From a virus (lineage: Duplodnaviria; Caudoviricetes): 64,000 nucleotides of DNA. Below the pieces are notes generated by a model. That model saw only the letters and a list, made by a program, of their open reading frames with translations. It was not told the origin of the DNA and searched no databases. Shown piece by piece: positions 9,229 through 32,248 of this stretch. The stretch's first letter is position 1. Every line of letters begins with the position of its first letter. The position numbers and the translations under genes were made by a program. Location of the stretch: positions 1-64,000 of IMG/VR virus record IMGVR_UViG_3300012952_002053. One strand, 5' to 3'.

Positions 9229-9955
9229 TATCTAACCTTTGTTTTATTTTGTTAAAGTATTTTTCATGTACAACTTTATCTGCATGTAGCCAATCTGAAA
9301 AATGTTCTTTATGTGTGTCTTTGTATTGGTCAACAAAACTATCATACGGTTCTATAAATGTATCAAATGGAAATGTTTTTAGCATGTGCTCTATATTTAA
9401 AAATTCCCATTGCCCTTCATCCATCTTAGCACAATTATTAACTTGAATATATTCTACATTGTTGCTTTTTAAAAAAGCATCTAGTAAAGTAATATTTATT
9501 ACACGTTTAATTCTACCGAAGTCAAAGTCGGTATGATATAATTGCAATGCTTTAAACCAGTTCTCAAATTTAGGACCTTTACCTTCTTTATAGAAAGGTC
9601 TCCAATCACAACCATTGGCCCAATGAAAGTGTTCCATTGTGTTGTTGTTTTCATGTGTAAATTCTATACGTTCGTCTGTAGTCCATCCTATTACTACTGC
9701 AAGTTCACTAGGTTCCCTGCCTTGTGTTAGCCATTTGTTTACAAAATGCATTACACTTCTAACCATATACTCATTACTGCCACCTGGCTCTGAATCGTTA
9801 ATGTAATGTAATCCATAATGCTTTGCTAACAGTCCGGGCCATGCATATTTAATAGACTCGTGTGTTCTAGCAGTATTGCCAAACTCTATAACTTCACTGC
9901 CTGCCATATGGCTACAACCTACTGCGTACATATACTTTTTATTTGTTATGTCCAA
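9221..9955 (-). CDS. SGNH/GDSL hydrolase-like protein (possible acyltransferase or esterase)
   Basis: Block I GCSH, block II PGGSN, VIGWT, block V DWLH (DxxH). Confidence 0.7.
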   Translation of the reverse strand: MDITNKKYMYAVGCSHMAGSEVIEFGNTARTHESIKYAWPGLLAKHYGLHYINDSEPGGSNEYMVRSVMHFVNKWLTQGREPSELAVVIGWTTDERIEFTHENNNTMEHFHWANGCDWRPFYKEGKGPKFENWFKALQLYHTDFDFGRIKRVINITLLDAFLKSNNVEYIQVNNCAKMDEGQWEFLNIEHMLKTFPFDTFIEPYDSFVDQYKDTHKEHFSDWLHADKVVHEKYFNKIKQRLDNE

Positions 9956-11247
9956 TTTAATCTACTCCATAGTTGTGGCAAACTTTGTTCTATGCTTTGG
10001 TCTCTTTTCTCATCTAATAGTAATGTGTACTTTTTAAATATTTCCATTTGTTGTTCTGCATCGTCATTTACATTACTGTCATCTAATGCATTGATTAATC
10101 CTAATATACTTTGCTTGTTACGTTCATCATTATCAAAGTATGTGCTTTTGTTTAACCATTGCTGTAAATTTGTTTGTGCTTCAACTCTTATATCCTTAGG
10201 CAAGTTTCTTATGTCTAAACATTTAGGATAGTTGTTTAATAAAAAACTAATATCTATTCTACGTCCTGTGTCTGCTAGTATCTGTTCTGCATAGTCAAGT
10301 AAGTCTGTTATTGTTAGTATGTTATATATTTGTACAACTGGACTAAACAATATATTACCAACAACATCAGATGTTGCATAGTCTCTGATATGCTTGTCTA
10401 CAATACTCCAAGTACTTCCACTTCTAATATATTCGTTTGTTGTTCCATAGCCATCAACACTTAAACACATCAACACATCTTTAAACTTGGCTATTAAGTC
10501 TAAAAACCTTGGTTGTATGTTTGTCATATTACTATTAAATACTAAATCTATATTATCGTTTATTCCGAGCTCGACGCATTTTTCGAGGATCCAATACACA
10601 CGTTGGATAATTGTGGGCTCACCCCCTGTGAAGTAAAGCCTGTTGACACTAGGCAACCATGTTTCCACTGTGCTAAGGAACCCAGGATCATCAAACCAAG
10701 GCTGAGTGTAATCACTGAAATCATTCCAATGACTTGTTTCCACGATAAACTTTCTTTCTTCTTCATTATATAATTCCTCATCTTTTAATTCTTTATAGAT
10801 GGCACTACTGTTTTGACTCTGACACATTCTGCAACGCAAGTTACATAATGTTCCTAATCTAAAATCTAAGTACTGTGGTGATTCTTCCACCACATAATCA
10901 TTGTCAATACTTTTATCAATAATTTGTTGTATTTGTTCTGCATTAGGATGAAAGCCTAACCAGTCCTTTATATAGTTTTCCCTATAACTAGGTATTCCTA
11001 AATCTTCTAAATCATAGCAAGGCTCACATCCGTCTACACGTTCGCCTTCTATCATTTGACGTCTTATCTTTTTATAATGATTGTTATTCCAAACTGTGCC
11101 TATGTCATCACCTTTGTTTAACATCAATATACTTCCGTCATCATTCTTTATCTGTCCATTAGCAACACAACAAAAGTTTACAGTACTGCTAGGTTGTGTC
11201 ATTACATGTATCCAAGGATAAGGACAAAACGTTTTACTATATGTCAT
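9946..11247 (-). CDS. N-terminal twitch-domain radical SAM protein #1
   Basis: FCPYPWIH..CC..CEPC auxiliary-cluster motif, CNLRCRMC, FTGGEP, SNMTN, SVDG. Start at 11247 after a GGAG SD; the track starts at 11271. Confidence 0.9.
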   Translation of the reverse strand: MTYSKTFCPYPWIHVMTQPSSTVNFCCVANGQIKNDDGSILMLNKGDDIGTVWNNNHYKKIRRQMIEGERVDGCEPCYDLEDLGIPSYRENYIKDWLGFHPNAEQIQQIIDKSIDNDYVVEESPQYLDFRLGTLCNLRCRMCQSQNSSAIYKELKDEELYNEEERKFIVETSHWNDFSDYTQPWFDDPGFLSTVETWLPSVNRLYFTGGEPTIIQRVYWILEKCVELGINDNIDLVFNSNMTNIQPRFLDLIAKFKDVLMCLSVDGYGTTNEYIRSGSTWSIVDKHIRDYATSDVVGNILFSPVVQIYNILTITDLLDYAEQILADTGRRIDISFLLNNYPKCLDIRNLPKDIRVEAQTNLQQWLNKSTYFDNDERNKQSILGLINALDDSNVNDDAEQQMEIFKKYTLLLDEKRDQSIEQSLPQLWSRLNWT

Positions 11248-11860
11248 GTTTGTCTCCATACCTTGTATCAAATTCTATTTTACCATATGCAACTGCTATG
11301 TCTGAGTATCTTGCATGACAGTTAGTAATAAATTTTCTTACATTATCATAATCTTCTATTGCGTCCTCATGCTTTATAGACTTCTTGTGTTCTAAATGAC
11401 TCCAATCTTCTTGTAGTAATTGTTCCATAGTAACATGCTTTATAGATTTCCAAGGAAGAAACTTAGTTACATATTTCATATATGTATTAAAACTCACATG
11501 TCTAATTACTTCTCGTTTAATTGTTTGCTTGTCTACTACAATCTTTTCAGGTAAGTCTGCAACTCCATGCCAAACATCTGTGTGATGAGATACAATACTA
11601 CTACATATTTGGCTAGTAATATTTCCTCTAGTGTTTACAATCAAATCCCAATCCTGTGTTTGTTCTGGTAATTGTTTTAAATGACATTGCACTATAAAAT
11701 CAAAATCAAATGGAAAGAAACTTTCAGTTATTTGATATTCATATAAGGATTGTTGTTCATGCGTTGCTGTAAAGTAAACTTTATATCCGTCTTGCTCATA
11801 CTCGTCTAACAGCAAATGCGATCCTGTTCTACCTGATGTTTTTAATAATACTCTACTCAT
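11237..11860 (-). CDS. Sulfotransferase-like protein
   Basis: N-terminal strand followed by SGRTGSHLL (5'-phosphosulfate-binding-like loop). VNTRGN..QICS resembles the 3'-PB region. Confidence 0.5.
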   Translation of the reverse strand: MSRVLLKTSGRTGSHLLLDEYEQDGYKVYFTATHEQQSLYEYQITESFFPFDFDFIVQCHLKQLPEQTQDWDLIVNTRGNITSQICSSIVSHHTDVWHGVADLPEKIVVDKQTIKREVIRHVSFNTYMKYVTKFLPWKSIKHVTMEQLLQEDWSHLEHKKSIKHEDAIEDYDNVRKFITNCHARYSDIAVAYGKIEFDTRYGDKHDI

Positions 11861-13101
11861 ATCCTGTCGTGCTTATCTAATAATTTTATTTCGTCCATAG
11901 TACCCATTAGTTCCATAGCATTCTGACTTTCTGCTTTAAAGTATGGCTCCATATATTTCCATAATTCAGGAAACGTATCTGCTAAACTTTCATCTCTATA
12001 CTTGTCACTGAAACTTGTTTGTCTAACAAACTCATCCATGTATCCGTCATAGTGTTCTTGGTTCATAAAGTTTAATGTACTTTGTATTCTTGGATCATTG
12101 TTTCCTCTAAACTTTTCTGTTATAACATTCTTTATATTTTTAGGTAATGCTTTAGGACTTATGTGCTGTGGTACATACACCATATTAAAATGTATCTCAC
12201 CATCTATGTTATGTTCTGCATCATACTTTAATAATTCATCCATATACATAACATTAAAAATACTTACAGTATAGAAAACATTAGTTCTAATAAAGTTTGT
12301 ATTCTTAAACTTCCAATAGTTTTCTATTACTTCATCGAACTGTTGTGGATGTCTTATGTAATTAAACCTTTCACCTACTCCGTCTATACTAAAGAACACT
12401 TGTACATCTTTAAATTCTTTTAGCAAGTCCATGTGTTGTTTTGGATATATAGAACCATTTGTATTATAACTTAACGTAATATCTTTTGCTCTACCTTTGT
12501 CTACAAGTGTTTGTAATATATCAAAGTGTCTTTTTATTAAGAAAGGCTCACCACCAAAAAACTCTAAACTTTCTACTTCTTCAATTTGATTTTCTATGTC
12601 GTCCCAAAACTTTTCGTTTAGTTCGGGCCAACGTCCTAGTCTACCCATGAGGTGTGCAAACTGATTAGTTTCACCATCACGTTCTATTTCTTCTGGTACC
12701 CATTGACTACTAGCAAAGCCTGTACATATTCTACATTTGGTATTACATATATTTCCTAATTTTAAATCCATGCTCTTAGGCTTTGTATGTTCTAAATTAT
12801 CTATATGATGAGGAAACTTTTTAAGTTCACGTAATCGTTTACTTTCTATACCTGCTTCTTCTTCGTTCCAGCAGTTATAACATGACTCAGGCTTTTTACC
12901 ATCTAAAAAGTCTTGCTTAAGATTTGCTAACCATTCGCTATCCCATGCATCTTTTAATGTATGACCATCTGCTAAATTTATCCCTGGTGCTGTTTCTTGC
13001 ATTACACAGCACACACCAATCTCCCCATTGGTGCGAGCCTCTTGGTTTATCCAAGGCAATATGCAAAAATGTTCTGGTCTAGTCATCTCGTTCCTCATCA
13101 T
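11857..13101 (-). CDS. N-terminal twitch-domain radical SAM protein #2
   Basis: FCILPW..CC..CYNC, CNTKCRIC, FFGGEP, YNTNG, SIDG. The real start may be 13086. Confidence 0.9.
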   Translation of the reverse strand: MMRNEMTRPEHFCILPWINQEARTNGEIGVCCVMQETAPGINLADGHTLKDAWDSEWLANLKQDFLDGKKPESCYNCWNEEEAGIESKRLRELKKFPHHIDNLEHTKPKSMDLKLGNICNTKCRICTGFASSQWVPEEIERDGETNQFAHLMGRLGRWPELNEKFWDDIENQIEEVESLEFFGGEPFLIKRHFDILQTLVDKGRAKDITLSYNTNGSIYPKQHMDLLKEFKDVQVFFSIDGVGERFNYIRHPQQFDEVIENYWKFKNTNFIRTNVFYTVSIFNVMYMDELLKYDAEHNIDGEIHFNMVYVPQHISPKALPKNIKNVITEKFRGNNDPRIQSTLNFMNQEHYDGYMDEFVRQTSFSDKYRDESLADTFPELWKYMEPYFKAESQNAMELMGTMDEIKLLDKHDRI

Positions 13102-14389
13102 ACCACGGTCTTAAATCTTCTAATTCAGGAAACACTTGGAACAAGTTCTCTGCTCTAAACCTATCCATCTCTTTTGCTTCTTGTAAACTATCAGATAATA
13201 AATGACTATCATCGCCATCCATAAACTGATGTAAACTTTTAAACGTGTCTGTTACACGACCTACGGTATCTCTATCTCCAATCCATTCTAATGTTTCTTC
13301 AATATTCTTTTGTACTTGCTTTCTCATGTGTTCAGGTAATACTGTTGCTCTGTGAACATGCTTACCAAGTAAAATGTTTACGCCAAAGTCTTTTGGCTCT
13401 ATGAATCCTATATCACATAGTTCTCTATAAAAGTTGCATACATCTAAAGCATTAAACATGCTGACAGTACAACTAATATTAAAATCTGTATCGGGCAGTT
13501 CTTTTTTCATACGTTCTCTATTAGCAAGTGTTTCATTCCATATGGTACCTTTACGCAGATACTCTCCTCTTTTCCATCCTGCATCTAAACTTGCACCAAC
13601 ACTTACCTCATCAAACTTTTTCCATAACTCTATGGCGTCTTGTTCTTTATAAACTAATTTACTAAAGTTTGTATTATAAAAAATTCTCATAGGAGTATCT
13701 TTTTTGGTTCTGCCCATTTCTACTAACTTGTTCATTATATACCAATGCTCGTCCATTATCAATGGCTCACCACCTGCCCAATATATTTTCTCCACAGTAT
13801 CTAAGTATGGATCAAACTGTTCCATAAATTCTGTATTACCTTTTCTTATTTGCAGTATGGGTGTAGGGTTTGTAGGAGTTCTATTAAACTTACTGTCCGT
13901 TGCATCATGGAACCACTGGCTACTTAAATCAGGTCCACATGTTCTACATCTCATGTTACAGATATTACTAAAACGTATGTCCATATAAGTTAAGTGTACT
14001 TTGTCTACACTACCATCTACATTTGTTTGTTGTACTATATCTGCTTTACTTTTATGTATGTCAAACTTTTCTGAAATAAATTCACTGTTGCTACGTTTAC
14101 GCAGAGTGTCATGTCCTATGTCTTCTAACTCCCAACATCTAGAACAGTTGTCTATACGTTTGCCATTTAACATATCAAGTCTAAACTTTTTCATGTTATC
14201 ACTATTGTAACATTCGTCTAAGTCCATTTCATTTAAGTTACCGATTGGACTATGGTGTTCACTTAAACAACAAGTAAACACTCTGCCATCGGGCCAAGGG
14301 TGCATGTGTATCCATGGTAGGATACAAAACGCATCGCCTTTGGCTAACTCTTTAATCTCTTCTATTGTTTTATTAATTTTATTATCCAT
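13079..14389 (-). CDS. N-terminal twitch-domain radical SAM protein #3
   Basis: FCILPWIH..CC..CSRC, CNMRCRTC, WAGGEP, YNTNF, SLDA. Probable start at 14389; the track starts at 14434. Confidence 0.9.
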   Translation of the reverse strand: MDNKINKTIEEIKELAKGDAFCILPWIHMHPWPDGRVFTCCLSEHHSPIGNLNEMDLDECYNSDNMKKFRLDMLNGKRIDNCSRCWELEDIGHDTLRKRSNSEFISEKFDIHKSKADIVQQTNVDGSVDKVHLTYMDIRFSNICNMRCRTCGPDLSSQWFHDATDSKFNRTPTNPTPILQIRKGNTEFMEQFDPYLDTVEKIYWAGGEPLIMDEHWYIMNKLVEMGRTKKDTPMRIFYNTNFSKLVYKEQDAIELWKKFDEVSVGASLDAGWKRGEYLRKGTIWNETLANRERMKKELPDTDFNISCTVSMFNALDVCNFYRELCDIGFIEPKDFGVNILLGKHVHRATVLPEHMRKQVQKNIEETLEWIGDRDTVGRVTDTFKSLHQFMDGDDSHLLSDSLQEAKEMDRFRAENLFQVFPELEDLRPWYDEERDD

Positions 14390-15129
14390 GCGTTCAAGTC
14401 CCACTCCCACCAACGTTCTCCTCCTTGATGCCAAGCACCAGGTTTGTTATGGTGGTTGTTATGCCAACCCTCTCCAAATGTTATTAAGTTTACTAAGTGG
14501 TGGTTTACACTTTCATCTTTTGTGTCCCATGTTCTATATCCCAACCACTTTAATCCTTTGCCATGTCCCCATGTGTTAAAGGCACCTGTTGCCCATACAC
14601 ATAAACTTGCTGGCACAAGGTATGCATAAATTATTAGCATAGGATCTATTACTGCTAGTATAGAACAGTATGCCAATATGTATGCAAAGAAATAATGATG
14701 TGCATTCATTACATCTTTATTTTTAATCCAGTCTTTTGCATTACGCAAATTCCAACGTCCTGTATCTGTTAAGTCTAATGTCCAACTTTGAAACAGACTC
14801 ATATGATGTGGGCTATGTGGATCTAACTCTTTGTCAGAGTATTTGTGATGTTCTCTGTGAGTTACTATATAACCAAATACAGAACTTACACTTGCCAACG
14901 TTGCACTTACTATTAATATTCGTTCCCAAAACTTATTAGTTTTAAATACTTTATGAGCAAAGTATCTATGTTGCCCAACACTATTACCTATACTTGCAAA
15001 CCAAAAATATACTGCTAGTGATATCCACCAGTAGTTGCTTGGTCCTAGTACCACAGCCGTAGCAAGTCCTAAATGCATTAAGCATCTAAGTATTACTAAC
15101 TTAGGTCTAGTAAATGCTAGTATTTCCAC
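14362..15129 (-). CDS. Membrane fatty-acid desaturase (delta-9 / DesC-OLE1-like)
   Basis: Three His boxes HRYFAH, HREHH and GEGWHNNHH, plus DPHSP and hydrophobic helices. Confidence 0.92.
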   Translation of the reverse strand: MEILAFTRPKLVILRCLMHLGLATAVVLGPSNYWWISLAVYFWFASIGNSVGQHRYFAHKVFKTNKFWERILIVSATLASVSSVFGYIVTHREHHKYSDKELDPHSPHHMSLFQSWTLDLTDTGRWNLRNAKDWIKNKDVMNAHHYFFAYILAYCSILAVIDPMLIIYAYLVPASLCVWATGAFNTWGHGKGLKWLGYRTWDTKDESVNHHLVNLITFGEGWHNNHHNKPGAWHQGGERWWEWDLNAWIIKLIKQ

Positions 15130-16357
15130 TTTCTTCTACCTTGCTTACGAGCTCACTGAATATTTTTCTCCAGTCACTCTTATCATTATTATCCATTAAA
15201 TCGTTGTAACGACAAAACTGTTCCCACTTCAACTCGTCCCATTCGTCATTATTGAACATGCTTAATAACGTTCCGAGTTTGTGGTCATTACCCAATGCTT
15301 CTCTAAATTTTGTATGTATCAACTCTCTCGCCTTAACCGGTATTACCGCAGGACTTAGGTAATCAGGATCATACACGAAGTTCATGTCAACCTCTATCCC
15401 AATGCTGTTTGCCCATTCGAAAAACTCAGGTAATGTCGCATAGTTATATGCACTCACAGTTTGTGTTATCCTTAATGTTAATTTATCTTTATTATCTAAA
15501 AGTTTACTGACTGTATTATTTACAGCCTGCCAACTTGTTCCAGTTCTTATAAATGCATTACGTTCATGTAAGTCATCTATACTAAGACAAATCCTTGCTT
15601 CTTTAAACTCGGGCCATAGTTCCAAAGCAATTGGTGGTAACATTGTGCAATTAATATTATACCATAGTGTAATATTTTTGCTTCTACCACTCTCTACTAA
15701 CTTTCGTAAGTATTCCCAATGTTGTTTTATTAATGTTGGTTCTCCTCCATTAATATAAAGTACTTCTAAATTTGGAGCAGAGTTATATAAGTCTTCATAA
15801 AAATTATCATCCTCTGCCCACTTAAAGTCTTCAGGAAAATTTAATCCTAAGTAACCTTTGTTGATGAAGTCTGCTTTCTCAACAATGTCTTTGTAATCTT
15901 CCAACCACTTACTACTACTTGCCGGATTGCAAGTACGACAGCGGACGTTACATACATTACCAAGACGCAACTCAACAAAACGAAGGTCCATAGGAATACT
16001 GCCATCTTCCCTAGTAATCCCACTCGCCCAATCAAAGGAGTTTTGTGGAAAAACTGTTTTCTCATGGTCACGTTTGGATTTAATTCCTTTATCTTCTTCA
16101 TTGTAGCACCTCATACATGCCTTAGGCATCTTATTATTTAACATATCTAAGCGAACTTCTTTATAGTAGTCACTATTCATATGTTCTTCTATCGTTTGTT
16201 TATTTAAATCAAAGAATTCGTTGTGTTCCTCCTTATAATTCCTTGCTCGGTTCAAGCCGTCAGTATGGTCACTTATACAACATAGTGTCACGCCACCGTG
16301 CGGATGTGTTGCTAAATGTTGCCAAGGTAGTGGGCAAAATGTATCTGGTCTACTCAA
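15107..16357 (-). CDS. N-terminal twitch-domain radical SAM protein #4
   Basis: FCPLPWQH..CC..CMRC, CNVRCRTC, INGGEP, SIDD. Confidence 0.9.
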   Translation of the reverse strand: MSRPDTFCPLPWQHLATHPHGGVTLCCISDHTDGLNRARNYKEEHNEFFDLNKQTIEEHMNSDYYKEVRLDMLNNKMPKACMRCYNEEDKGIKSKRDHEKTVFPQNSFDWASGITREDGSIPMDLRFVELRLGNVCNVRCRTCNPASSSKWLEDYKDIVEKADFINKGYLGLNFPEDFKWAEDDNFYEDLYNSAPNLEVLYINGGEPTLIKQHWEYLRKLVESGRSKNITLWYNINCTMLPPIALELWPEFKEARICLSIDDLHERNAFIRTGTSWQAVNNTVSKLLDNKDKLTLRITQTVSAYNYATLPEFFEWANSIGIEVDMNFVYDPDYLSPAVIPVKARELIHTKFREALGNDHKLGTLLSMFNNDEWDELKWEQFCRYNDLMDNNDKSDWRKIFSELVSKVEESGNTSIY

Positions 16358-17787
16358 TTGCTATACTCCCCTTGACTGACAGGCAGGAACCCTGCTGTCG
16401 ACACAGTTTCATATTCATGAATATAATCAAATGATGATTTAACTAATTCATACAGTTCAGGAAATACCTGAACAAAGTTTTCTTCTCTGTATATATCACC
16501 TCCAACTATTTGTGATTTAAAAATTTCCCATTTCTTTTCTATACTACGTTCGTCAAAGAATTTTAATTTACTTTCATCGAACTTATTTCTTAAACTATCT
16601 ACTACACTAGAACCATTCTCATATAGTGGAGAGTTCATAAAATCTATTAATGCTTGTATCTCACTTTTGTATTGAGGCAACCATTCATGTCTTAATAGTT
16701 TGTCTGTAATTATTTTTTTAGCATTAGCCGGCAATACACTTGCACATATCCATTTAGGATAGTGTACAGCATTGTTCCATATCTTAAAGTTTGGATAATG
16801 TTGTTTAAAGTAATCGTGAAACTCTGGCAAGTACATTATATTTAATGCACTTACAGTATGTGTAATTTGTACAAATACTGGATACTCACTGTTGTGCAAT
16901 TCATAATAGTAATCTAAATTTTGTTTTACTTCACTCCAATCACCTGGATGTCGTAAGTATGTGAACCTGTCTTCTATACCATCTATGCTTACACTAAATG
17001 CCAAGTCCTTAAAGTTCTTTGCCATCTTATCTAAAAAGTTTTTGTCTGCAATAGTTCCATTAGTGCTAAGTGTGAGTGCTATCTTTTTTGACCTACCTGT
17101 TTCAATTAGTATATCTACAAAACGTTTGAACTCTTTCATATAAAAAGGTTCACCGCCCATTATTTCTAAACGTAATACTTCAGAAGTCCACTCGTCCATT
17201 GTTTTCCAAAATGCACTATTCTCCATATCGTTCATATGTATCTTTGCTGTAGTTTCCCAAAAAGGAATATTTCTATCTACTGCTTCTTCTTTCCATTTAC
17301 TGCTATAGTTTGTATTGCAACTTCTACATTTTAAGTTACAAGTGTTATCAAATATTAATTGTGCGTCTATTAATCTATCTGGTTCTTCGTCCCACACTAT
17401 AGCATCTTTGCCGTACCATTGCTTGTAGTAATCATTGTACTGCATACGTTTAGATACTTTACCATTATCTTCATCTATCCAACATGTTTGACAGTTGCCT
17501 ATGTCTTGTCCATTCCTGATTTGATTTCTGTACTCTCGCATAGTATCGCTTTTTAAAATATCAAGCATACCATGTTCTCCCAAGTTAAAATCTTGTCCTT
17601 GGTTATCTTTAATTCTTTCTGTAGCAATACAACAAGTTCTTACAGTACCGCCCGGCTCATTACTGATATGACTCCACAGCAAGGCACAGTACTTGTAGTC
17701 TGGATCAAAAAGTTGCTTTTCTTCGTGTGCCTGATATTGGAACCCGAATCTATTTTGCTTGGCTGTTGTCATAATTTTCTTTAACAA
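16354..17787 (-). CDS. N-terminal twitch-domain radical SAM protein #5
   Basis: YCALLWSH..CC..CQTC, CNLKCRSC, IMGGEP, STNG, SIDG. The real start may be 17772. Confidence 0.9.
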   Translation of the reverse strand: MLKKIMTTAKQNRFGFQYQAHEEKQLFDPDYKYCALLWSHISNEPGGTVRTCCIATERIKDNQGQDFNLGEHGMLDILKSDTMREYRNQIRNGQDIGNCQTCWIDEDNGKVSKRMQYNDYYKQWYGKDAIVWDEEPDRLIDAQLIFDNTCNLKCRSCNTNYSSKWKEEAVDRNIPFWETTAKIHMNDMENSAFWKTMDEWTSEVLRLEIMGGEPFYMKEFKRFVDILIETGRSKKIALTLSTNGTIADKNFLDKMAKNFKDLAFSVSIDGIEDRFTYLRHPGDWSEVKQNLDYYYELHNSEYPVFVQITHTVSALNIMYLPEFHDYFKQHYPNFKIWNNAVHYPKWICASVLPANAKKIITDKLLRHEWLPQYKSEIQALIDFMNSPLYENGSSVVDSLRNKFDESKLKFFDERSIEKKWEIFKSQIVGGDIYREENFVQVFPELYELVKSSFDYIHEYETVSTAGFLPVSQGEYSN

Positions 17788-19544: not shown

Positions 19545-19547
19545 ATC

Positions 19548-20864: not shown

Positions 20865-20913
20865 TTTTATCTCCTAATTTAGTTTGTTGTGTGTGTAGAA
20901 TTAACTACTAGTA

Positions 20914-20921
20914 TATTTATC
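20914..20921 (-). promoter_or_regulatory. T4-late-like promoter GATAAATA heading the 20864-1352 operon
   Basis: Intergenic GATAAATA-N5-GTAGTTAA, then a CA-rich leader and AGGAG SD. The layout is identical to the site at 33436-33443. Confidence 0.65.
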
Positions 20922-20959
20922 ATCTAAAATAAACATAGTATTTAAGTTGTGATTTGTTA

Positions 20960-24448: not shown

Positions 24449-24450
24449 GT

Positions 24451-25872
24451 TTACCTGCTGTTGTGTTTCGGGTCTGTGCGACTCCACCAGTCCCAAAGTT
24501 CTGGGTCCGCACTATATATTTCTTCTATTGTAATACTGTTACCTGGGTAACCGTCCTCTCTAATTCTTGCTATTTCTCTTTGCCATTGCCTACCATTGAA
24601 GAACTGATCCTCTGCTGTATCAGGAAACTGTTCTTGAAACGTAGGTGTATTTAATATTTGATTAAGTTGATTAATTACTGTTTGCTGTTTGGGTGTTATA
24701 ATAGGTGTAAGGTCTTCTATTAGTTTACGCACAATCCTATCTAATATGTGTCTGGGCCAACTCATAAAACTAAACACAATGTCAGGATGGAATGCAAACA
24801 TATTCTTTGTTTCTATTTTAACATCTAGTTCTAATGCATAGTTTACAAAATCACGTAAGCCAAATAGCCCTGGTCCTGTTAGTGTTAGATCCATTAGCAT
24901 TTTATCGTTGCCGCCTGGTAATGCTACACCTTCTCTAAAGTTTTGGTCCCACTCTTCCCAATCAAGTCCTGTTCTAATAAACTCTCCTATACGTCCTATA
25001 CCGTCTATACTTGCACACATAGTCCAGTCTTTTGCTTGTGGTAACCAATCATATAAGTAATGCTTTCCATAACGCACTCTGCTTAAATTACTATTGTATC
25101 TTAAATGAACTTTGTTTAAATTATTATCTTCAGCAAGTCTATTCATTGCTCGCCAATGTATATCGTACATTAAAGGTTCACCACCTACCCAATAAATTTC
25201 TTCTACAATACCTCTGCAAATGCTATCCCAAAACTCTTCTTCCACAACTTCCTTTTGAAACTTTTCTATAATCTTTTTATTTTCCGGAACCATGAACGGT
25301 TGATTCTCAGGAGTCCAATGGTCATGTTTTCTTTTCTCAGCCTCCCAAGAAGAACTTAGTTGCTCTCCACACATTCTACATTTAAAGTTACATAAGTTGC
25401 TTACACGATAATCAAAACTGATAGGCTCCATTGTAGTATAGCCGTTTTCATCTGTACTATCAAAGCATTGGTCTATTTTGTCATTAAACAAGAATCCTGT
25501 AAACCATTGTCTGTAATTACTTTGACTTAACAAATTATCGTTACACACATCACATTGTGGAATCTTTTCACCTGCCATAAGTTTCTTTCTTATATCCATC
25601 ATGTATGGACTGTTCCAATGTTCTTTAAGTGTAACAACATGTTGCTTATAATCTTCTATAGTACCAGACTCTTTTACAGCACCATACTTTGCATCATTAC
25701 TGGCATCTATATATTGTTTTTGGAATTTGTGTTCTTCTCTACTAGCACAACACATACGTCTTTCTGATTGTGGACTGATATAGGTATGGGTCCAAGGTGC
25801 TGTACAAAACACTTTGTTTTCTGAATCAGGATGAACGTTTCCGTGTTCCCATTTTGGTTTAATTTTTTTCAT
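24451..25872 (-). CDS. N-terminal twitch-domain radical SAM protein #6
   Basis: FCTAPWTH..CC..CDVC, CNFKCRMC, WVGGEP, YNSNL, SIDG. Confidence 0.9.
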   Translation of the reverse strand: MKKIKPKWEHGNVHPDSENKVFCTAPWTHTYISPQSERRMCCASREEHKFQKQYIDASNDAKYGAVKESGTIEDYKQHVVTLKEHWNSPYMMDIRKKLMAGEKIPQCDVCNDNLLSQSNYRQWFTGFLFNDKIDQCFDSTDENGYTTMEPISFDYRVSNLCNFKCRMCGEQLSSSWEAEKRKHDHWTPENQPFMVPENKKIIEKFQKEVVEEEFWDSICRGIVEEIYWVGGEPLMYDIHWRAMNRLAEDNNLNKVHLRYNSNLSRVRYGKHYLYDWLPQAKDWTMCASIDGIGRIGEFIRTGLDWEEWDQNFREGVALPGGNDKMLMDLTLTGPGLFGLRDFVNYALELDVKIETKNMFAFHPDIVFSFMSWPRHILDRIVRKLIEDLTPIITPKQQTVINQLNQILNTPTFQEQFPDTAEDQFFNGRQWQREIARIREDGYPGNSITIEEIYSADPELWDWWSRTDPKHNSR

Positions 25873-26428
25873 ATATTCCTGACCAACAATTATGTTTACT
25901 TTTTTCCCAGCCTGTTAAATCTATATCATTGTAAGATTCATTTAATATTTTTTGTGTATATCCTACACTTTCTAAAAGCCTAGTAATTTCCTTTTCGTTC
26001 AATCTAAAATTAAATTGAAAAGGATTACTTATACCTCTATCACTAAATGCATTACCTGGTAAATTAAATTCTTCTTCATCTATGCTTAATATACAATGTA
26101 TAGATTCTATGATTAACGTTTTAGGTTCGCTTATATTAATTATCTGTTCTAGTAAATGTATTGGGCTATGTAAATGATACAATAAACCCATACACACTAC
26201 AACATCATATTTCCCGTGGCTATTTTTATAAAAGTCGTTTGCTGTACCTACAAATGTATTTGCATTTAAAGGTGCTACATCTGTGTTAGGCTCTACACTT
26301 AACACTTTTTTAGGTTTGTGTTTTAATATTTCTTTAGTAAAGTGTCCAGCAAAACTTCCAAGTTCTAAAACTGTTTTGTCTTCACAATGTGCAAATAATG
26401 TATCCAGTACGTCACTATATTTCTTCAT
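25859..26428 (-). CDS. Class I SAM-dependent methyltransferase
   Basis: VLELGSFAG (motif I), LSVEP, YDVVVCMGLLYHL. Confidence 0.85.
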   Translation of the reverse strand: MKKYSDVLDTLFAHCEDKTVLELGSFAGHFTKEILKHKPKKVLSVEPNTDVAPLNANTFVGTANDFYKNSHGKYDVVVCMGLLYHLHSPIHLLEQIINISEPKTLIIESIHCILSIDEEEFNLPGNAFSDRGISNPFQFNFRLNEKEITRLLESVGYTQKILNESYNDIDLTGWEKSKHNCWSGIYEKN

Positions 26429-28103
26429 CTACTGTTCCGCCTAATCCATCAACTTCTGTGTCCCAGCCTATACTACTGCCTGCCTTACGTTTTATATTTG
26501 GATTATAATCTGGGTCGTCTTTATATTTTTCATCATCATAGTCATCATCACTTTCACCTGTTTGGCGTCCACGCACTTTCATTTCTACAACTTTTACTTC
26601 ACCATCTTCTGTTACAATACGTTTAGCATATAATGTATTAGTTACACCAACACTATCTGGTGCTTGTATATCATTTATTTCATCGTCTGATATATCTTTT
26701 ACTTCAATACTATCATACCATTCTGTTAATCTTGGAAATGTTTCTCTGAAATTAAATCCACGTCTTGCATCATATTGTTCATAAAATACTTTAAAGTCAT
26801 GGTGTAATAAATCTTGTTCTGCTGTATTTCTATGAGGAGTCTTAACAACATCTAAATATTCTATTAGTCTACTAATTTGATCCTGCTCCCATGGTTGCAA
26901 TAACTCTGCACCTGTTATCTCAGACTTTTCACCTTTGTCCCTTACTGCTTGTAGCCAATCACTTATCTCATCATGATACATTTTTCTTAAATGGTCTGGT
27001 AATGTTAGTGGACTTTGGAAACTTGGAAAACGTAATATGTTTACACTAATGCCTGGAACATGATGTCCATATTTACGTTTCATGTCTAAGCACCAATCCC
27101 AAAACTCTGTAATACTATCTAAGCACAATGCATTAATAGTCATCATCATATGTACGCCTTCGTATCTTGCCTCTGTGGCAAAACGTTCAAACTGGCTAGT
27201 CCATATTTCCCAATCTAATCCATCTCTAATATATTCTGCTTGTGGACCCTTTGCTTCACAACTAGTATATACATGGAAGTGGTCTATGTGTTGTGTAGCA
27301 TCTATAAACTTATTAAGTAAACCTTCTTTAGCCATTAAGTTACTGTTGATAGCAAGACGCATGTTTTTTGCATTGGGTTCATCTGTTTCTTTAAACCAAT
27401 CAAACAATTTGTATATGCTAGGAGTCATTAATGGCTCTCCACCTGTAACTCTTATCTCTTCTAGTTCTTTACTTAGTTCGGGCCACCATCTCCAAAAAGC
27501 ATCCACATAAGGATTATCTTCTCCTTGGTCAAAAGGTTCGGCGTATGGTGCGTCATCAATAAAGTGTCCACGTGCATCACTCTTAATACCTTGATAGCCT
27601 CCGTTAGTACGAATATCTTTTACCCATGTGCTACTAAATGCTGGATTACAATAACTACATGCTAACTGACATGTTCTATCAAATGCAACTTCACATGTTT
27701 TTAAATTTACATCTTCGTTAGGATCTGCTGTTGCGGCCCATTCTAAATCTCTATCTTCATATATAACTGTTTTATATACTCTGTCTGACACAGGTACATT
27801 ACCATCTGCGTCTTTACCCATGTCCTCAATCTTCCAACAATACTCACACTCTTTAGGACGTGAACCTGTTTGCATCATGTCACGCATTTTCTTTTTGTGT
27901 CTACTATTGTGTATAGCACTAGGATTTGTTTTTATCTCTTCTAAATCTATTTGGTGTGCAGGAGGGTGATGGCAACTAGTTGTTCCACCATGTCCTAACC
28001 ATATTGTAGCATTGTACCATTTAGCACCACAAAAACTTTCAGAGACGGAATCAATCATCCTCTCTTTAAATTCTCTATGTGACTCTCCTACTTTTCTAAC
28101 CAT
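26415..28103 (-). CDS. Radical SAM protein #7 (CxHP subtype of the N-terminal auxiliary domain)
   Basis: FCGAKW..SCHHPP..CEYC, CQLACSYC, VTGGEP, INSNL. Long acidic C-terminal tail. Confidence 0.9.
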   Translation of the reverse strand: MVRKVGESHREFKERMIDSVSESFCGAKWYNATIWLGHGGTTSCHHPPAHQIDLEEIKTNPSAIHNSRHKKKMRDMMQTGSRPKECEYCWKIEDMGKDADGNVPVSDRVYKTVIYEDRDLEWAATADPNEDVNLKTCEVAFDRTCQLACSYCNPAFSSTWVKDIRTNGGYQGIKSDARGHFIDDAPYAEPFDQGEDNPYVDAFWRWWPELSKELEEIRVTGGEPLMTPSIYKLFDWFKETDEPNAKNMRLAINSNLMAKEGLLNKFIDATQHIDHFHVYTSCEAKGPQAEYIRDGLDWEIWTSQFERFATEARYEGVHMMMTINALCLDSITEFWDWCLDMKRKYGHHVPGISVNILRFPSFQSPLTLPDHLRKMYHDEISDWLQAVRDKGEKSEITGAELLQPWEQDQISRLIEYLDVVKTPHRNTAEQDLLHHDFKVFYEQYDARRGFNFRETFPRLTEWYDSIEVKDISDDEINDIQAPDSVGVTNTLYAKRIVTEDGEVKVVEMKVRGRQTGESDDDYDDEKYKDDPDYNPNIKRKAGSSIGWDTEVDGLGGTVDEEI

Positions 28104-28695
28104 CGAAATTTCCTACGTCAAAACTTAAAGTTCTCATTTGAGTGTTATCCTCTAATTCAATTACCCATTCAATCATTTCTGCTACACTATCAGCAGTCAT
28201 CATTATATCTTCTATGTTATTTACACCTTTTAGCCATGCAGTACTGTCTGTGTCTACCATTCCAGGTTTAATCATAGTTACTCTACACATACCAGGTTTA
28301 AACTGATTTGCTAACTGTAAACATGCCCAATCCAATCTTGCTTTGTCACTTACATAAGGTGTCCAGTCTTTATTGTAACCCATTTGTGCAAAGTTACTAA
28401 TACTATCGCTACTAATAGCACCCATATTAATAATTAACTTAGGTGTGTTTACCCATTGTTCATACATTGTATATAACAGTCTTACTTGATTGTCCGGCAC
28501 ATAAGCATTGTTTACCAATACATCGGCATCCCATTCCAAGCACTCATTAACAACTTTCTTTACTGTGCTTACACGTTGCAAGTTGTATCCTGTACTTTGA
28601 CTAAAGCCTTTTACTTCATAGTTGTCTTGGTCTAGTCTATCTACTAATGCTTTACCAATGCCTCTTGTATGTCCTGTTATTGCTATCTTTTTCAT
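28096..28695 (-). CDS. Short-chain dehydrogenase/reductase (SDR)
   Basis: ITGHTRGIG (TGxxxGIG), LVNNA, YVSDK (YxxxK), IKPGMVDT. Confidence 0.85.
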   Translation of the reverse strand: MKKIAITGHTRGIGKALVDRLDQDNYEVKGFSQSTGYNLQRVSTVKKVVNECLEWDADVLVNNAYVPDNQVRLLYTMYEQWVNTPKLIINMGAISSDSISNFAQMGYNKDWTPYVSDKARLDWACLQLANQFKPGMCRVTMIKPGMVDTDSTAWLKGVNNIEDIMMTADSVAEMIEWVIELEDNTQMRTLSFDVGNFDG

Positions 28696-28696
28696 A

Positions 28697-28867: not shown

Positions 28868-29122
28868 TTACTCAATGACTTCCTCTAGTATGCCTAACAG
28901 TTCTGCTAATAATAAACTAATTGCTAATACTACTATACTCATTGACGCCCATGCCCAAATACATCCGCCAATTCTGATAGCACTTTTAACCATGCTTATT
29001 TTATAATGCATGTTGCCTGGGTCTTTTCCTATACTCATATAATTCTCCGCTATTTGACTACCAGGCAAATCTTCTCGCCTCTTAGGTAATCTGTCTAAAT
29101 GTCTTTTTAAACTTTGTTCCAT
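28868..29122 (-). CDS. Small membrane protein, hypothetical (84 aa)
   Basis: DPG..HYKISMVKSAIRI and a hydrophobic C-terminus ending AELLGILEE. Coupled within the operon. Confidence 0.65.
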   Translation of the reverse strand: MEQSLKRHLDRLPKRREDLPGSQIAENYMSIGKDPGNMHYKISMVKSAIRIGGCIWAWASMSIVVLAISLLLAELLGILEEVIE

Positions 29123-29295
29123 ATTCTTTCGTGTATATAATAAATTACCATCTTAGCAAAAAATTCTATGCCTCCAATGGCTAATGCTACACTTACATCT
29201 CCAATAATAAAATATGCTATTCCAATTGTCGTGAGTGTTGCTGTAATTCTCCATGTAAATGTTTTTAGTAAACTTCTAAGTTTGCTTTCCTTCAT
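29107..29295 (-). CDS. DUF2061-type small membrane protein
   Basis: RSLLKTFTWRITAT...YYIHERIW signature. This family commonly lies next to APS kinase genes. Confidence 0.85.
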   Translation of the reverse strand: MKESKLRSLLKTFTWRITATLTTIGIAYFIIGDVSVALAIGGIEFFAKMVIYYIHERIWNKV

Positions 29296-30040
29296 TCCTT
29301 ATTTTAGTTGCACTAATTTCTTCTATGCTTTTATCAAAGTGTTCTTGTTCTATTTTATACCCTACATCTCTTCCGTATGTTATATTCACGATGTTTGGTA
29401 CCACTTTAATCTGCAACTTTCCTGCATAGTGTACTAATTCAAATTTTAGTTTTTGTGCTATGTCTTGTGCTAGATATGGATTACTTTCATCAGTAGCCAT
29501 GTTTCTAATCATTAAACATACTTGTCCATGTTTTGCCATTGCACGTTCTAACAATGCTTGATGTCCTTCATGCCATGGCTGAAATCTACCAAGCATTTGT
29601 GTTGTGGGAGCCTGTTCATCCCACATAAACACATTACCTAAACTCCATGCTATGTTCATAGCATCTTTATCATTCTTAGTTTTTATTCTGTAATCGTAGT
29701 TATCATCTTTCTCAAAAACTTTATTAGTATCTTCAAATCTTCCTTTTTTAATTGTGTCTACAAATATATTATAGTCTGCATTAAAATCTTTCCTAGCAGA
29801 TTTAAATGGACAAACAAAATCTGCTAATGCAATTTTTCCTTGTGCTTCTACTTGTTCACATTTACGTTGCATTCTAATTTTTTGTCTTAGCCTTCCGTCA
29901 TCTGAAAAGTCCCAATCATTTGCTTCTTCTCTAACTTTGTCTGCATTTATCCATGCAACTTTGTCTCCCAAATACTCGCAAAGTTTTTCTGCTAAAAAAC
30001 TTTTACCTGCACCAGGTAATCCATAAATTAAAACTTTCAT
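29276..30040 (-). CDS. cysC: Adenylyl-sulfate (APS) kinase fused to an HxGH nucleotidyltransferase-like domain
   Basis: P-loop GLPGAGKS, INADKVR, DWDFSDDGR, DFVCP, RFEDTNKVFE. The C-terminal domain has MLGRFQPWHEGH and ITYGRDVGY. Confidence 0.8.
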   Translation of the reverse strand: MKVLIYGLPGAGKSFLAEKLCEYLGDKVAWINADKVREEANDWDFSDDGRLRQKIRMQRKCEQVEAQGKIALADFVCPFKSARKDFNADYNIFVDTIKKGRFEDTNKVFEKDDNYDYRIKTKNDKDAMNIAWSLGNVFMWDEQAPTTQMLGRFQPWHEGHQALLERAMAKHGQVCLMIRNMATDESNPYLAQDIAQKLKFELVHYAGKLQIKVVPNIVNITYGRDVGYKIEQEHFDKSIEEISATKIRNEGKQT

Positions 30041-30360
30041 TTCACAAATAAGCCTTTAATGCTTTTCCCTTTACCCATGTCACCGTTAAAAGTCATTTGT
30101 CCTTTTAACACTAATGACATTGGATTTGCACCTTTTGTAAACATGTCTATCATTACATCTTTGTTTACAAAGCCTACTGTAATGTCAGCATTATCTAAGT
30201 TGCCTTCTTCTAGTGTTACTGAAGAGTCATGTACTTGCACATTAAACTTTCCATTGTCCTCATTTATTACATTTACATTTATGTCTATGTCTATTCCTTC
30301 AGATTTTACTTCGTTTAAATTAGTTGTTAGTGTGTTTCTTATACTGTCTATGTCTAGCAT
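30037..30360 (-). CDS. SCP2 (sterol carrier protein 2-like) lipid-binding protein
   Basis: EGNLDNADITV...MF...ANPMSLVLKGQMTFNGDM pattern. Start at 30360 after AAGGAG; the track starts at 30390. Confidence 0.8.
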   Translation of the reverse strand: MLDIDSIRNTLTTNLNEVKSEGIDIDINVNVINEDNGKFNVQVHDSSVTLEEGNLDNADITVGFVNKDVMIDMFTKGANPMSLVLKGQMTFNGDMGKGKSIKGLFVK

Positions 30361-30617
30361 ACTGTCTCCTTTGGATAACCTAAGTACCATTCTTTTATTG
30401 TGTTTACTCTTACATCACGCCACGCATCAACATCTAAGCCGTAACAGACTATTGTGTCGTTACTGCTATAGTTTTTGAATATCATTTGTTGTCCTGATAT
30501 ATCATTGTTCAACGTGCATGGCATAGTTCGAATTTCTTTTGTGTCTATCTTTTCAAATACAATAGTTACTACTTCTTTTTTAAGTGCATTAATTAATTCT
30601 TTTGTATTCACGTTCAT
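30354..30617 (-). CDS. SH3-like / WYL_2 (DUF2693-type) small phage protein
   Basis: LKKEVVTIVFEKIDTKEIRTMPCTL...GLDVDAWRDVRV. Start at 30617 by ATGA overlap. Confidence 0.7.
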   Translation of the reverse strand: MNVNTKELINALKKEVVTIVFEKIDTKEIRTMPCTLNNDISGQQMIFKNYSSNDTIVCYGLDVDAWRDVRVNTIKEWYLGYPKETVC

Positions 30618-32248
30618 TGTAATGCCTCTGCTTCTTCGCACATAAAATAGAATTGACTCATTTCAGGAAATGTTGCTAAAAAATCTGTGCCTCTTCTAGC
30701 ATCATGTTCATTAAAAAATTTACTGAAGTCTGCTCTATCTCTTAATAATTTGTCTCTAGGTAATTCTTTTTTCATATGTTCTAAATTTCTTTTTACCTTT
30801 TCTATTTCAAAATCTTTAAAACCTTCGTAGTCTACAAATTCTTCATTTGCTTTATTACGTTCCATAAACTGTATTGCTTCAACTAAATACTCCTGATAAT
30901 CCTCAGGAAGTATTTGTATGCTTTGCCAAGCAGGATTACGCAATAACGGTATGTCAAACCATATACGTTGTTCTGGTGTCTCCCAACCTAATGCATATTG
31001 TGTTTGCTTGTTCCATCTTTTTCTTAATGTTAATACACCTTCTAAAAATTCTTTTAAACTTGGTAAACTCATACAATTAAATGTGTTAATAAAATTAATA
31101 CTAGTATGATGTGTTTCATCTAAAAATCTATTTACATTGCTCCACACTTTGTTAAAATCCATACCATGTCTTATATATTCTGCTTGTTGTCCCCAGCCAT
31201 CTAAACTTACGAACACACTAAAGTTATGATATGCTTTGTCTTGATATTTGTATTCATATGTATAACTGTTGTCACCTTGTTCTTCACATTGTCCTATTTG
31301 TAAAAATGTTTGTTTAATTTCATCTCGTTCTATACTAGGCAAATCACTGTCATGATAACGTTTTGCATCTGCACCAATTATATAGTGGTCCCATGTTTGC
31401 CAATCTGTGCCGTCGTATGGATCTGGCACATATACTTCTGCACTATGCTCTACATTGTCTAATTTTTTAATCAACGTCATAAATCTATCAAACAATGCTG
31501 GTACTATAGGACACATGTTTGTTGTTATACTTAATTCTAAATCTTTGTTTGGATTTTCTAATACATACTCCATTACCTTAAATGTATTTTTATCCATTAG
31601 TGGTTCACCACCTGTCATACGAAAAACTCTTAATGTTTTAAACATTTCGGGCCACCATTTCCAAAATGCATTGACATATGGATTATCATCTTGCGATACT
31701 TTTAATGGCATAAGATTTTTATTTCTTAAACTGTCTATGTTATTATGTGGAGCAGTAGTTGGGTATTCTCCAAACTCGTCTATCTCTTCTTGCCATGCTG
31801 TACTTAGATGTGGACTGCAATAACTACATTTGAAATTACATGCTTGATTAAAATTTACTTCTACATAACGTGGATTTATATTACCACTAGCACCAGCATC
31901 CATTATATCTTCTTTACTTTCCTGTGCCCAATATTCTCCACTTCGATATATTCTGTCGCTTCTGTCACCTTGGTCTTCTATGTTCCAGCAATAACTACAC
32001 CCATCTGGTCTTTCTCCTTTTAACATTAATCTACGTTGTTCTTTCTTTTCTTCTGTGTTGTGTAGTGCTGTAGGATTGTTTTCTAATTCTTCTAAAGGTA
32101 CTTTATGAGTAGGTGGGTGGTAACAACTATGCGTCATGCCATTAGTCAAATGCATGGATACCTGGCTCCATTTGGCATAACACATTGATGGACTTATCTT
32201 GTCCAGTTGTTCTTGCGCCTTGTCGGCGTCTTTATCGTATATACTCAT
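30614..32248 (-). CDS. Radical SAM protein #8 (CxHP subtype)
   Basis: MCYAKW..SCYHPP..CSYC, CNFKCSYC, MTGGEP, ITTNM, SLDG. ATG at 32248 by TAATG overlap. Has a ~75-aa internal insertion. Confidence 0.9.
   Translation of the reverse strand: MSIYDKDADKAQEQLDKISPSMCYAKWSQVSMHLTNGMTHSCYHPPTHKVPLEELENNPTALHNTEEKKEQRRLMLKGERPDGCSYCWNIEDQGDRSDRIYRSGEYWAQESKEDIMDAGASGNINPRYVEVNFNQACNFKCSYCSPHLSTAWQEEIDEFGEYPTTAPHNNIDSLRNKNLMPLKVSQDDNPYVNAFWKWWPEMFKTLRVFRMTGGEPLMDKNTFKVMEYVLENPNKDLELSITTNMCPIVPALFDRFMTLIKKLDNVEHSAEVYVPDPYDGTDWQTWDHYIIGADAKRYHDSDLPSIERDEIKQTFLQIGQCEEQGDNSYTYEYKYQDKAYHNFSVFVSLDGWGQQAEYIRHGMDFNKVWSNVNRFLDETHHTSINFINTFNCMSLPSLKEFLEGVLTLRKRWNKQTQYALGWETPEQRIWFDIPLLRNPAWQSIQILPEDYQEYLVEAIQFMERNKANEEFVDYEGFKDFEIEKVKRNLEHMKKELPRDKLLRDRADFSKFFNEHDARRGTDFLATFPEMSQFYFMCEEAEALQ

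Follow-up and report, generated by a model that had tools for sequence, protein, structure and literature searches.

Results

Eight radical SAM genes with an N-terminal twitch domain

We analysed a stretch of 64,000 bases of viral DNA (hereafter the window), the first 64 kb of the 84,961-base IMG/VR virus record IMGVR_UViG_3300012952_002053, for which a reading of the sequence alone (the original prediction) had proposed eight paralogous radical SAM (S-adenosylmethionine) enzymes, called rSAM1–rSAM8 below, with an inverted, N-terminal twitch domain. Eight minus-strand ORFs (open reading frames) within 9946–32254 were found to be full-length matches of the NCBIfam family NF033640 (N_Twi_rSAM), with scores of 291–361 bits (E 1e-86 to 6e-108) against a curated cut-off of 170 bits. 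A six-frame search of the whole record recovered the same eight N_Twi_rSAM genes and no ninth. The genes are listed below with their NF033640 scores and, where relevant, the support of their orthogroups by the SH-aLRT (Shimodaira–Hasegawa-like approximate likelihood-ratio test) and the ratio of non-synonymous to synonymous substitution rates (dN/dS).

9946..11271, minus strand: rSAM1, 441 aa (amino acids); 343 bits; own orthogroup with five phage orthologues, SH-aLRT 100; dN/dS 0.11
11857..13101, minus strand: rSAM2, 414 aa; 345 bits; own orthogroup, SH-aLRT 99; dN/dS 0.07
13079..14434, minus strand: rSAM3, 451 aa; 361 bits; N-terminal Pfam SPASM match, E 3.6e-10
15107..16357, minus strand: rSAM4, 416 aa; 354 bits; own orthogroup, SH-aLRT 100
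16354..17787, minus strand: rSAM5, 477 aa; 291 bits; own orthogroup, SH-aLRT 100
24451..25872, minus strand: rSAM6, 473 aa; 292 bits; orthogroup includes copies from the misbinned contigs L031 and L041 (see below)
26415..28103, minus strand: rSAM7, 562 aa; 315 bits; S-C-H-H variant; acidic low-complexity C-terminal tail of ~100 aa
30614..32254, minus strand: rSAM8, 546 aa; 330 bits in two stretches; core insertion of ~85 aa (alignment A1, columns 330–408)

The runner-up radical SAM families (viperin, MoaA, NirJ, QueE, NrdG and BlsE) scored at most 40 bits each, well under their own cut-offs. The prokaryotic viperin model NF038283 gave 18–40 bits in the six copies that matched it, against a cut-off of 180; MoaA gave at most 35 bits (cut-off 284), QueE at most 22 (206–260), NrdG at most 20 (131) and the BlsE model 26 (400), and models of anSME (anaerobic sulfatase-maturating enzyme) were absent among the NCBIfam matches of the eight copies at E up to 0.01. 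The copies are thus members of neither the viperin, MoaA, QueE nor NrdG families, and the clustering with MoaA, QueE, NrdG or anSME that the original prediction had named as evidence against itself was not seen. With NF033640, on the other hand, they share an end-to-end match, the order of twitch then core and the same cysteine motifs, and nothing sets the eight apart from that family.

In the alignment of the eight proteins (A1), the columns invariant in all copies comprise C-x2-(P/L/K)-W, a second cysteine, CxxC, CxxxCxxC, GGEP and a single N, S and R, at a pairwise identity to rSAM1 of only 18–28%. The second cysteine motif is CC in six copies and S-C-(H/Y)-H in rSAM7 and rSAM8. The CxxxCxxC and GGEP motifs, together with the predicted partial TIM-barrel core, place the eight copies in the radical SAM superfamily. 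Pfam placed the SPASM domain N-terminally (residues ~8–111) in half of the copies (E 3.6e-10 to 4.5e-4), with Radical_SAM after it, and in a PDB profile search the C-terminal twitch of BtrN (residues 183–256) aligned with N-terminal positions 13–84 (E 0.003). Outside CxxxCxxC, four cysteine residues are invariant (five in six copies). A full SPASM domain with its two auxiliary clusters has 7–8 cysteine residues; judged by sequence, those conserved here would suffice for one auxiliary cluster, that is, for a twitch and not a full SPASM domain. Scores, motifs, SPASM placement and the BtrN alignment therefore all bear out the assignment to N_Twi_rSAM with an inverted twitch. The D-x2-R...FPE(L/M)-like ending ascribed to most copies was roughly as described, with D-x2-R in six of the eight and exact FPE(L/M) in four, the rest being close variants.

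The copies are ancient and held one-to-one in a jumbo-phage lineage

The record was estimated by CheckV to be 23% complete, which implies a genome of ~350 kb. Its baseplate wedge protein is nearest to those of the jumbo myoviruses PA5oct, SCTP-2 and Atu_ph07 (~35% identity), and it further encodes a baseplate hub, a gp55-like late sigma factor, gp46/47-like nucleases and a tail-fibre-like protein; the radical SAM cluster abuts the tail-fibre and baseplate genes. A megablast search of the 22-kb radical SAM stretch against the phage collection gave zero matches, so that no cultured phage in it is close in DNA. The window is a fragment of the genome, ~350 kb in size, of an uncultured marine jumbo myovirus. 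Adjoining the tail-fibre-like gene is a single minus-strand ORF of 6327 aa (42258–61241), whose sole Pfam match is a YHYH domain at residues ~1274–1453 and which is weakly similar to the giant protein RsoM2USA_361 of the Ralstonia phage RsoM2USA.

Five related virus records (G001–G005), one of them 340 kb long and 91% complete, carry 8–10 copies each. In an 87-member maximum-likelihood tree, every window copy fell into its own orthogroup (SH-aLRT 98–100) with one copy from each of the five records. The tree came from a quick IQ-TREE search under LG+G4 without a mixture model and was midpoint-rooted for drawing only; some of its deep joins were flagged as meetings of long branches, whereas the orthogroups have short branches and strong support. 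For all eight copies, dN/dS between the window and its nearest relative was 0.04–0.13. The copies are ancient, intact, under purifying selection and held one-to-one across the jumbo-phage clade. The cluster and SAM motifs are the same throughout the 48 orthologues, and dozens of other columns are constant inside an orthogroup and different among orthogroups, which is the pattern expected for one mechanism with differing specificities.

rSAM7 and rSAM8 form a deep branch, to which the single copy of RsoM2USA also belongs. Their close orthologues are 544–564 aa long, compared with 445–457 aa for the distant copies on Haliscomenobacter contigs, and these lengths suggest that the rSAM7 tail and the rSAM8 insertion are kept only within the close clade. 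In G001 (IMGVR_UViG_3300024228_000554, the 340-kb record), two adjacent copies of the rSAM5 orthogroup lie at 4503–7276, a doubling that points to array duplication still being under way. The cluster of G001 also runs across the two termini of the linear record, from 329 kb to 14 kb, which fits circular permutation of the genome.

Glycosyltransferases and an NDP-sugar dehydrogenase accompany the array

The radical SAM genes lie in a run of overlapping or abutting minus-strand genes, in two tightly packed operons. About eight glycosyltransferase (GT) or GT-like genes stand beside the eight radical SAM genes, and the set conserved across the related phages consists of a GT2-like protein of 332 aa, the radical SAM enzymes and an NDP (nucleoside diphosphate)-sugar dehydrogenase. 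The sugar-related genes are as follows.

32406..33404, minus strand: GT2-like (GT-A) glycosyltransferase, 332 aa; ESM Atlas viral 'Glycosyltransferase 2-like' clusters, score 0.99
19548..20864, minus strand: NDP-sugar dehydrogenase (UDP-glucose/GDP-mannose type); Pfam UDPG_MGDP_dh central and N domains
20960–21967, 21958–23103 and 23093–24496, minus strand: three paralogous GT-B-like genes with an invariant TEK motif (alignment A4)
34602..35474 and its paralogue 36539–37429, minus strand: GT8/nucleotide-diphospho-sugar-transferase-like, a lead only; Atlas GT8, Nucleotid_trans, score 0.95–0.96
1846–2553, minus strand: glycosyltransferase; phrog_1962
3248–7198, minus strand: GT-like protein of 1316 aa; BLAST links to the GT2-like gene

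The GT2-like gene opens the upstream operon and is the best conserved of the array's partners: its product is 81–97% identical in G001–G005 and 39–51% identical in the distant phages and RsoM2USA, and the gene always lies just upstream of a radical SAM gene of the 7/8 type. The dehydrogenase (77–94% identity in G001–G005) scored 142 bits with TIGR03026, under the cut-off of 189.8. An AlphaFold2 model of one TEK-motif paralogue (predicted local distance difference test, pLDDT, 84) had top Foldseek matches in the PDB that were nearly all GT-B proteins, including an alpha-1,3-fucosyltransferase. The GT8-like gene is conserved in all of the related phages and in RsoM2USA.

Interspersed with these is a second group of genes.

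7469..9022, minus strand: carbamoyltransferase (NodU/CmcH type); Pfam Carbam_trans_N and Carbam_trans_C
9221..9955, minus strand: DUF6071 protein between rSAM1 and the carbamoyltransferase; Pfam DUF6071
14362..15129, minus strand: membrane fatty-acid-desaturase-like protein; Pfam FA_desaturase, three hydrophobic segments
17750–18769, minus strand: PLP (pyridoxal phosphate)-dependent aminotransferase-like protein, tentative; weak CobD-like match (E 6e-4) and motif by eye, nothing in the PDB search
18753–19544, minus strand: 2OG (2-oxoglutarate)-Fe(II) oxygenase; Pfam 2OG-FeII_Oxy_3
25859..26428, minus strand: SAM-dependent methyltransferase; Pfam Methyltransf_23, E 2.8e-14
28096..28695, minus strand: SDR (short-chain dehydrogenase/reductase); Pfam adh_short
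29276..30040, minus strand: fusion of a P-loop kinase (APS-kinase-like) and a nucleotidyltransferase-like domain; Pfam APS_kinase and CTP_transf_like, weak NCBIfam matches

The carbamoyltransferase, DUF6071 protein, 2OG oxygenase, methyltransferase, SDR, kinase/nucleotidyltransferase and desaturase are variable tailoring genes. Desaturase, methyltransferase and glycosyltransferases had all been predicted among the interleaved genes and were recognized by Pfam and the other searches; the label 'sulfotransferase-like' given to a 207-aa protein (11237–11860) was not supported, with no match in Pfam, NCBIfam or PDB sequences. Directly downstream of rSAM8, a minus-strand ORF of 95 aa (30354–30641) carries a WYL_2 domain (Sm-like SH3 barrel) and, as a member of the operon, may encode a small protein for regulation or for binding a ligand.

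The FA_desaturase domain and an SCP2-like/alkyl-sulfatase-C lipid-binding domain (Pfam), both encoded inside the cluster, would suit enzymes that modify lipids, either hydrocarbon chains or a glycolipid, and the lipid-modifying radical SAM enzyme GDGT-MAS is indeed among the structural neighbours. The desaturase gene, however, occurs in two of the five close relatives, in none of four misbinned phage contigs (see below) and has no match in RsoM2USA, a patchy distribution that marks it as variable cargo; the conserved partners are glycosyltransferases and the NDP-sugar dehydrogenase, and membrane segments occur in none of the radical SAM proteins. We regard lipid modification as the least probable of the alternatives considered here. 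Hydrophobic segments were likewise found in none of the glycosyltransferases, and no flippase, polymerase, exporter or membrane-anchored glycosyltransferase was found in the cluster.

Putative late promoters were seen in the intergenic gap before each of the two operons.

33436..33443, minus strand: GATAAATA, late-promoter-like box ahead of the GT2-like gene (motif; promoter function predicted)
20914..20921, minus strand: GATAAATA, late-promoter-like box ahead of the NDP-sugar dehydrogenase gene (motif; promoter function predicted)

GATAAATA occurs four times in the window, always on the coding (minus) strand, the other two occurrences (36577 and 42223) coinciding with the edges of genes as called here. 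Of the canonical T4 late box TATAAATA, the whole window contains 0 copies against 11.5 +/- 3.4 expected by chance, which looks like avoidance of this word around a variant late promoter. The boxes, taken together with the gp55-like sigma factor encoded in the record, suggest that both operons are transcribed late. Such timing bears on whether the target could be the DNA itself. Phage glycosyltransferases can decorate DNA with a variety of glycans, a known form of hypermodification (Pyle et al. 2024, as cited in PMC12619734), and all of the enzymes appear soluble and cytoplasmic by their lack of hydrophobic segments, so that a glycan or other hypermodification of the phage bases against restriction could be imagined. 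DNA modification is needed during replication, whereas the genes lie in the tail module behind late-type boxes, and neither a base hydroxymethylase nor a DNA-binding glycosyltransferase was found within the window, the whole genome not having been searched for these. Thus we consider this explanation very unlikely.

The family in other phages, in fusions and in bacteria

The cultured Ralstonia phage RsoM2USA (344 kb) was found to carry a syntenic minimal module following its tail-fibre genes (genes 347–353, all annotated as hypothetical), which consists of a pair of GT8-like genes, a GT2-like gene (gene 350, 51% identical), a single N_Twi_rSAM gene (gene 349, 293 bits against a profile of the eight copies) and a GT-A gene, with overlapping reading frames. 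In the Vibrio phages K566 and K567, a row of four distant N_Twi-type genes is found (genes 0303–0308); those of K566 (OZ196521.1, locus L121, 255 kb; positions 161548–168284) scored 80–130 bits against the same profile, had the same cysteine architecture and were interleaved with unannotated proteins of 311–361 aa. Both systems are smaller than that of the window, with one and four copies compared with eight, and neither was seen to be accompanied by sugar-nucleotide or tailoring genes.

The profile was also searched against 1.84 billion cluster representatives (50% identity clusters) and recovered 7,225 of them with E no higher than 1e-30. These include at least 30 tandem fusions (within P0121–P0162) with two complete modules per chain, and one with three; a separate CxxxCxxC is present in every module, and GGEP in nearly all. 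One didomain form was recovered from four assemblies. In a further representative (P0177), an N_Twi_rSAM is fused to Pfam Glycos_transf_2.

In GTDB, the family is common in Bacteroidota, Bdellovibrionota, Myxococcota and Elusimicrobiota. It had been suggested that many 'bacterial' members are really phage genes, and this held for a small part of them: four of 80 GTDB loci are on contigs syntenic with the phage of the window, with glycosyltransferase genes, 3–6 radical SAM orthologues and a tail-fibre-like gene. These four contigs of MAGs (metagenome-assembled genomes) are likely to be misbinned jumbo-phage contigs.

L041 and L042: NZ_JBBAKG010000001.1 and ...003.1, Haliscomenobacter sp. EUL_031 (ctg1 and ctg3), 183 and 148 kb; also with a baseplate wedge gene
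L031: PBLX01000002.1, Legionellales SP228
L032: NHDJ01000025.1, Verrucomicrobia TMED56

Against the suggestion, 70 of the 80 loci share no phage gene with the window, among them loci of cultured isolates and on contigs of Mb scale; the majority of the bacterial members are genuine. The neighbours of 25 bacterial loci were mostly other radical SAM genes, PhyH oxygenases and proteins with a type IX secretion system tail, with no single partner. A carbamoyltransferase, as in the window, adjoins N_Twi_rSAM genes in L044, L078, L048 and L108, and in L044 a GDSL-like protein is encoded two genes downstream of it. In L109, the radical SAM gene is found with a methyltransferase, a Wzt-like ABC ATPase and two PhyH oxygenases.

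A minus-strand alternative-oxidase gene (34039–34605; Pfam AOX, E 1.6e-68) has a homologue (58%) on the misbinned TMED56 contig. The idea of a cyanophage host range was dropped, as this AOX had no match to the cyanophage PTOX genes in the phage collection, its only match there being Phage C48C1 (60%). The 'moraphage' paper (PMC12619734) was likewise set aside, as it concerns another lineage.

Structural comparison and relation to characterized enzymes

The AlphaFold2 model of rSAM3 (pLDDT 84, predicted template modelling score 0.82) was compared with solved structures in the PDB, and none matched the whole protein. For the core (residues ~148–408), anSME and BlsE tied as nearest (Z 12.9 each, ~215–222 residues aligned), followed by CteB, viperin, SkfB, SuiB and MoaA; Foldseek concurred, and the solved radical SAM enzymes had Z of 11–13. 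As these neighbours include both peptide-modifying and sugar- or nucleotide-modifying enzymes, the fold leaves the substrate unsettled.

BtrN (2-deoxy-scyllo-inosamine dehydrogenase), the founding twitch enzyme, resembles the phage proteins, as predicted from their cysteine residues, in having one auxiliary cluster in a short SPASM-related domain, and its substrate is a sugar-like small molecule. The similarity is marginal; the twitch follows the core in BtrN and precedes it here, and BtrN is without the C-terminal helical domain (~90 aa, with the D-x2-R...FPEL signature) of the phage copies. The substrate of BlsE (cytosylglucuronate decarboxylase) is a uronic-acid nucleoside, in keeping with the NDP-sugar dehydrogenase of the operon. 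For BlsE and anSME, identity was 16–20% with the core only aligned, and both have their auxiliary domains C-terminally, two clusters in the case of anSME. In published structures, single auxiliary clusters of the twitch type are typical of enzymes acting on small molecules and sugars, such as BtrN, MoaA and BlsE.

The likeness of the core to anSME, CteB, SkfB and SuiB raises the question of whether the enzymes modify a peptide or protein instead, in the manner of RiPP (ribosomally synthesized and post-translationally modified peptide) maturases or anSME (thioether formation, epimerization or formylglycine), with for example the 6327-aa protein as target and the glycosyltransferases acting separately. 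Some family members are fused to TPR repeats, which are usually protein-binding, and one carries a weak subtilase fragment. Several homologues bear the automatic JGI name 'sulfatase maturation enzyme AslB'. Identity with anSME/AslB was rejected for the window copies: their domain order is reversed, they have cysteine residues for one cluster only, and the core alone resembles anSME. More generally, no RRE (RiPP recognition element)/PqqD-like domain was detected by Pfam in any of the eight copies, none of the small ORFs (28868–29122, 30354–30641 and 7198–7512) is precursor-peptide-like, the single predicted auxiliary cluster differs from the two of SPASM peptide maturases, and both the fusion and the strict synteny are with glycosyltransferases. 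Peptide modification is accordingly, in our opinion, improbable.

Discussion

Proposed function

The reading that we favour, at a rough probability of 0.55, is the radical editing of sugars or of a glycan in the cytoplasm, probably for the virion. A sugar substrate is favoured by the synteny with the GT2-like gene, which extends from a soil Ralstonia phage to marine phages, by the fusion of a radical SAM module to GT2, by the NDP-sugar dehydrogenase in the conserved core and by the recurrent carbamoyltransferase neighbours; the three GT-B-like genes and the two GT8-like leads are counted as a further link to sugars. The original prediction also spoke of sequential radical chemistry on one scaffold. 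Successive steps of one pathway would account for both the tandem fusions and the one-to-one conservation of eight specialized copies, so that this idea gains indirect support from the ancient orthogroups, their specific columns and the at least 30 fusions, short of a demonstration. The scaffold is most likely a sugar or glycan, given the GT2 fusion, the conserved GT2-like partner and the three GT-B genes. Soluble products, the lack of an exporter and apparently late operons beside tail genes point to an acceptor in the cytoplasm, most simply a virion protein, for which the 6327-aa protein is a candidate. Virion glycosylation is known in mycobacteriophages (Freeman et al. 2023, as cited in PMC12619734).

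In the scheme that follows, we infer the substrate (a sugar), the kind of chemistry, the late timing and the acceptor (the virion). The [4Fe-4S] cluster held by CxxxCxxC in the partial TIM-barrel core would cleave SAM to give a 5'-deoxyadenosyl radical. The four invariant twitch cysteine residues would serve a single auxiliary [4Fe-4S] cluster, fully ligated, whose simplest role is to pass on electrons, as in BtrN or anSME. Each paralogue may then abstract hydrogen at a site of its own, be it another position or another residue, in a sugar nucleotide or a glycan under construction, leading to oxidation, epimerization, dehydration or decarboxylation, as in BtrN, BlsE, DesII and AprD4. Within the cytoplasm, the glycosyltransferases would place this product on a late-made acceptor and build it out further; the most probable acceptor is a tail-fibre or baseplate protein of the virion.

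Several observations weigh against the editing of sugars for the virion. The core is as close to the peptide-modifying anSME, CteB, SkfB and SuiB, and the TPR fusions noted above point towards proteins. In most of the 80 bacterial loci, none of the sugar genes of this cluster recurs, and the Oligoflexia arrays (L037 and L059) lie among unrelated genes without glycosyltransferases, with only one DegT aminotransferase nearby. A literature search found no characterization of the N_Twi_rSAM/NF033640 family, and the motif is what the late timing stands on. Moreover, similar islands of pelagimyophages have been read as modifying the host O-chain and not the virion (PMC7029224).

This last point leads to the alternative that we take most seriously, although we still consider it rather unlikely, namely that the same radical tailoring of sugars serves a product that remodels the host envelope (O-antigen, capsule or glycolipid) and so blocks superinfection or alters adsorption. 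This is the published reading of the glycosyltransferase-rich 'host recognition cluster' of pelagimyophages, which also contains UDP-glucose dehydrogenase and radical SAM cassettes (PMC7029224). The cluster described for pelagimyophages and cyanomyophages (Zaragoza-Solas et al. 2020, PMC7029224) resembles the present one in being an island within the structural/tail region of marine T4-like phages; it is variable there, whereas the radical SAM set is conserved in this distant jumbo lineage, and that study neither identifies the radical SAM family nor analyses its copies. The Wzt-like ABC ATPase beside the bacterial member L109, the membrane desaturase-like protein and the SCP2-like domain would also suit an envelope product. 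What speaks against it is the absence from the cluster of a flippase, polymerase, exporter or membrane-anchored glycosyltransferase, together with the late-promoter-like boxes and the site inside the tail module, which suggest that the product is needed at assembly; the desaturase, found in just two of five close relatives, looks like variable cargo.

Significance

NF033640 is a catalogued family without a known function, and what is new here is its setting, eight paralogues held one-to-one in jumbo phages, and its linkage with glycosyltransferases. Our analysis contributes the division into orthogroups, the naturally occurring fusions and two cultured phage systems for experiment. On the practical side, several 'bacterial' MAG records hold misbinned jumbo-phage contigs. 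For a very large family without a known reaction, radical chemistry on sugars is a testable idea, and RsoM2USA, K566 and K567, which have named hosts or isolation sources, should lend themselves to experiment.

Taken further than the sugar reading for the present phage, the data allow a bolder proposal, which is doubtful but worth stating: N_Twi_rSAMs may form a large unrecognized class of 'radical glycan editors' that act after or between glycosyl transfers on protein-linked glycans, and marine jumbo phages may deploy eight to ten such enzymes and an equal number of transferases so that their tail fibres or baseplate are coated in hyper-modified sugars without counterpart in known glycobiology. 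If radical editing of sugars is indeed what these enzymes do, it would be new carbohydrate chemistry, and abundant ocean phages would be spending more than 20 kb on oxygen-sensitive enzymes that decorate themselves or their hosts.

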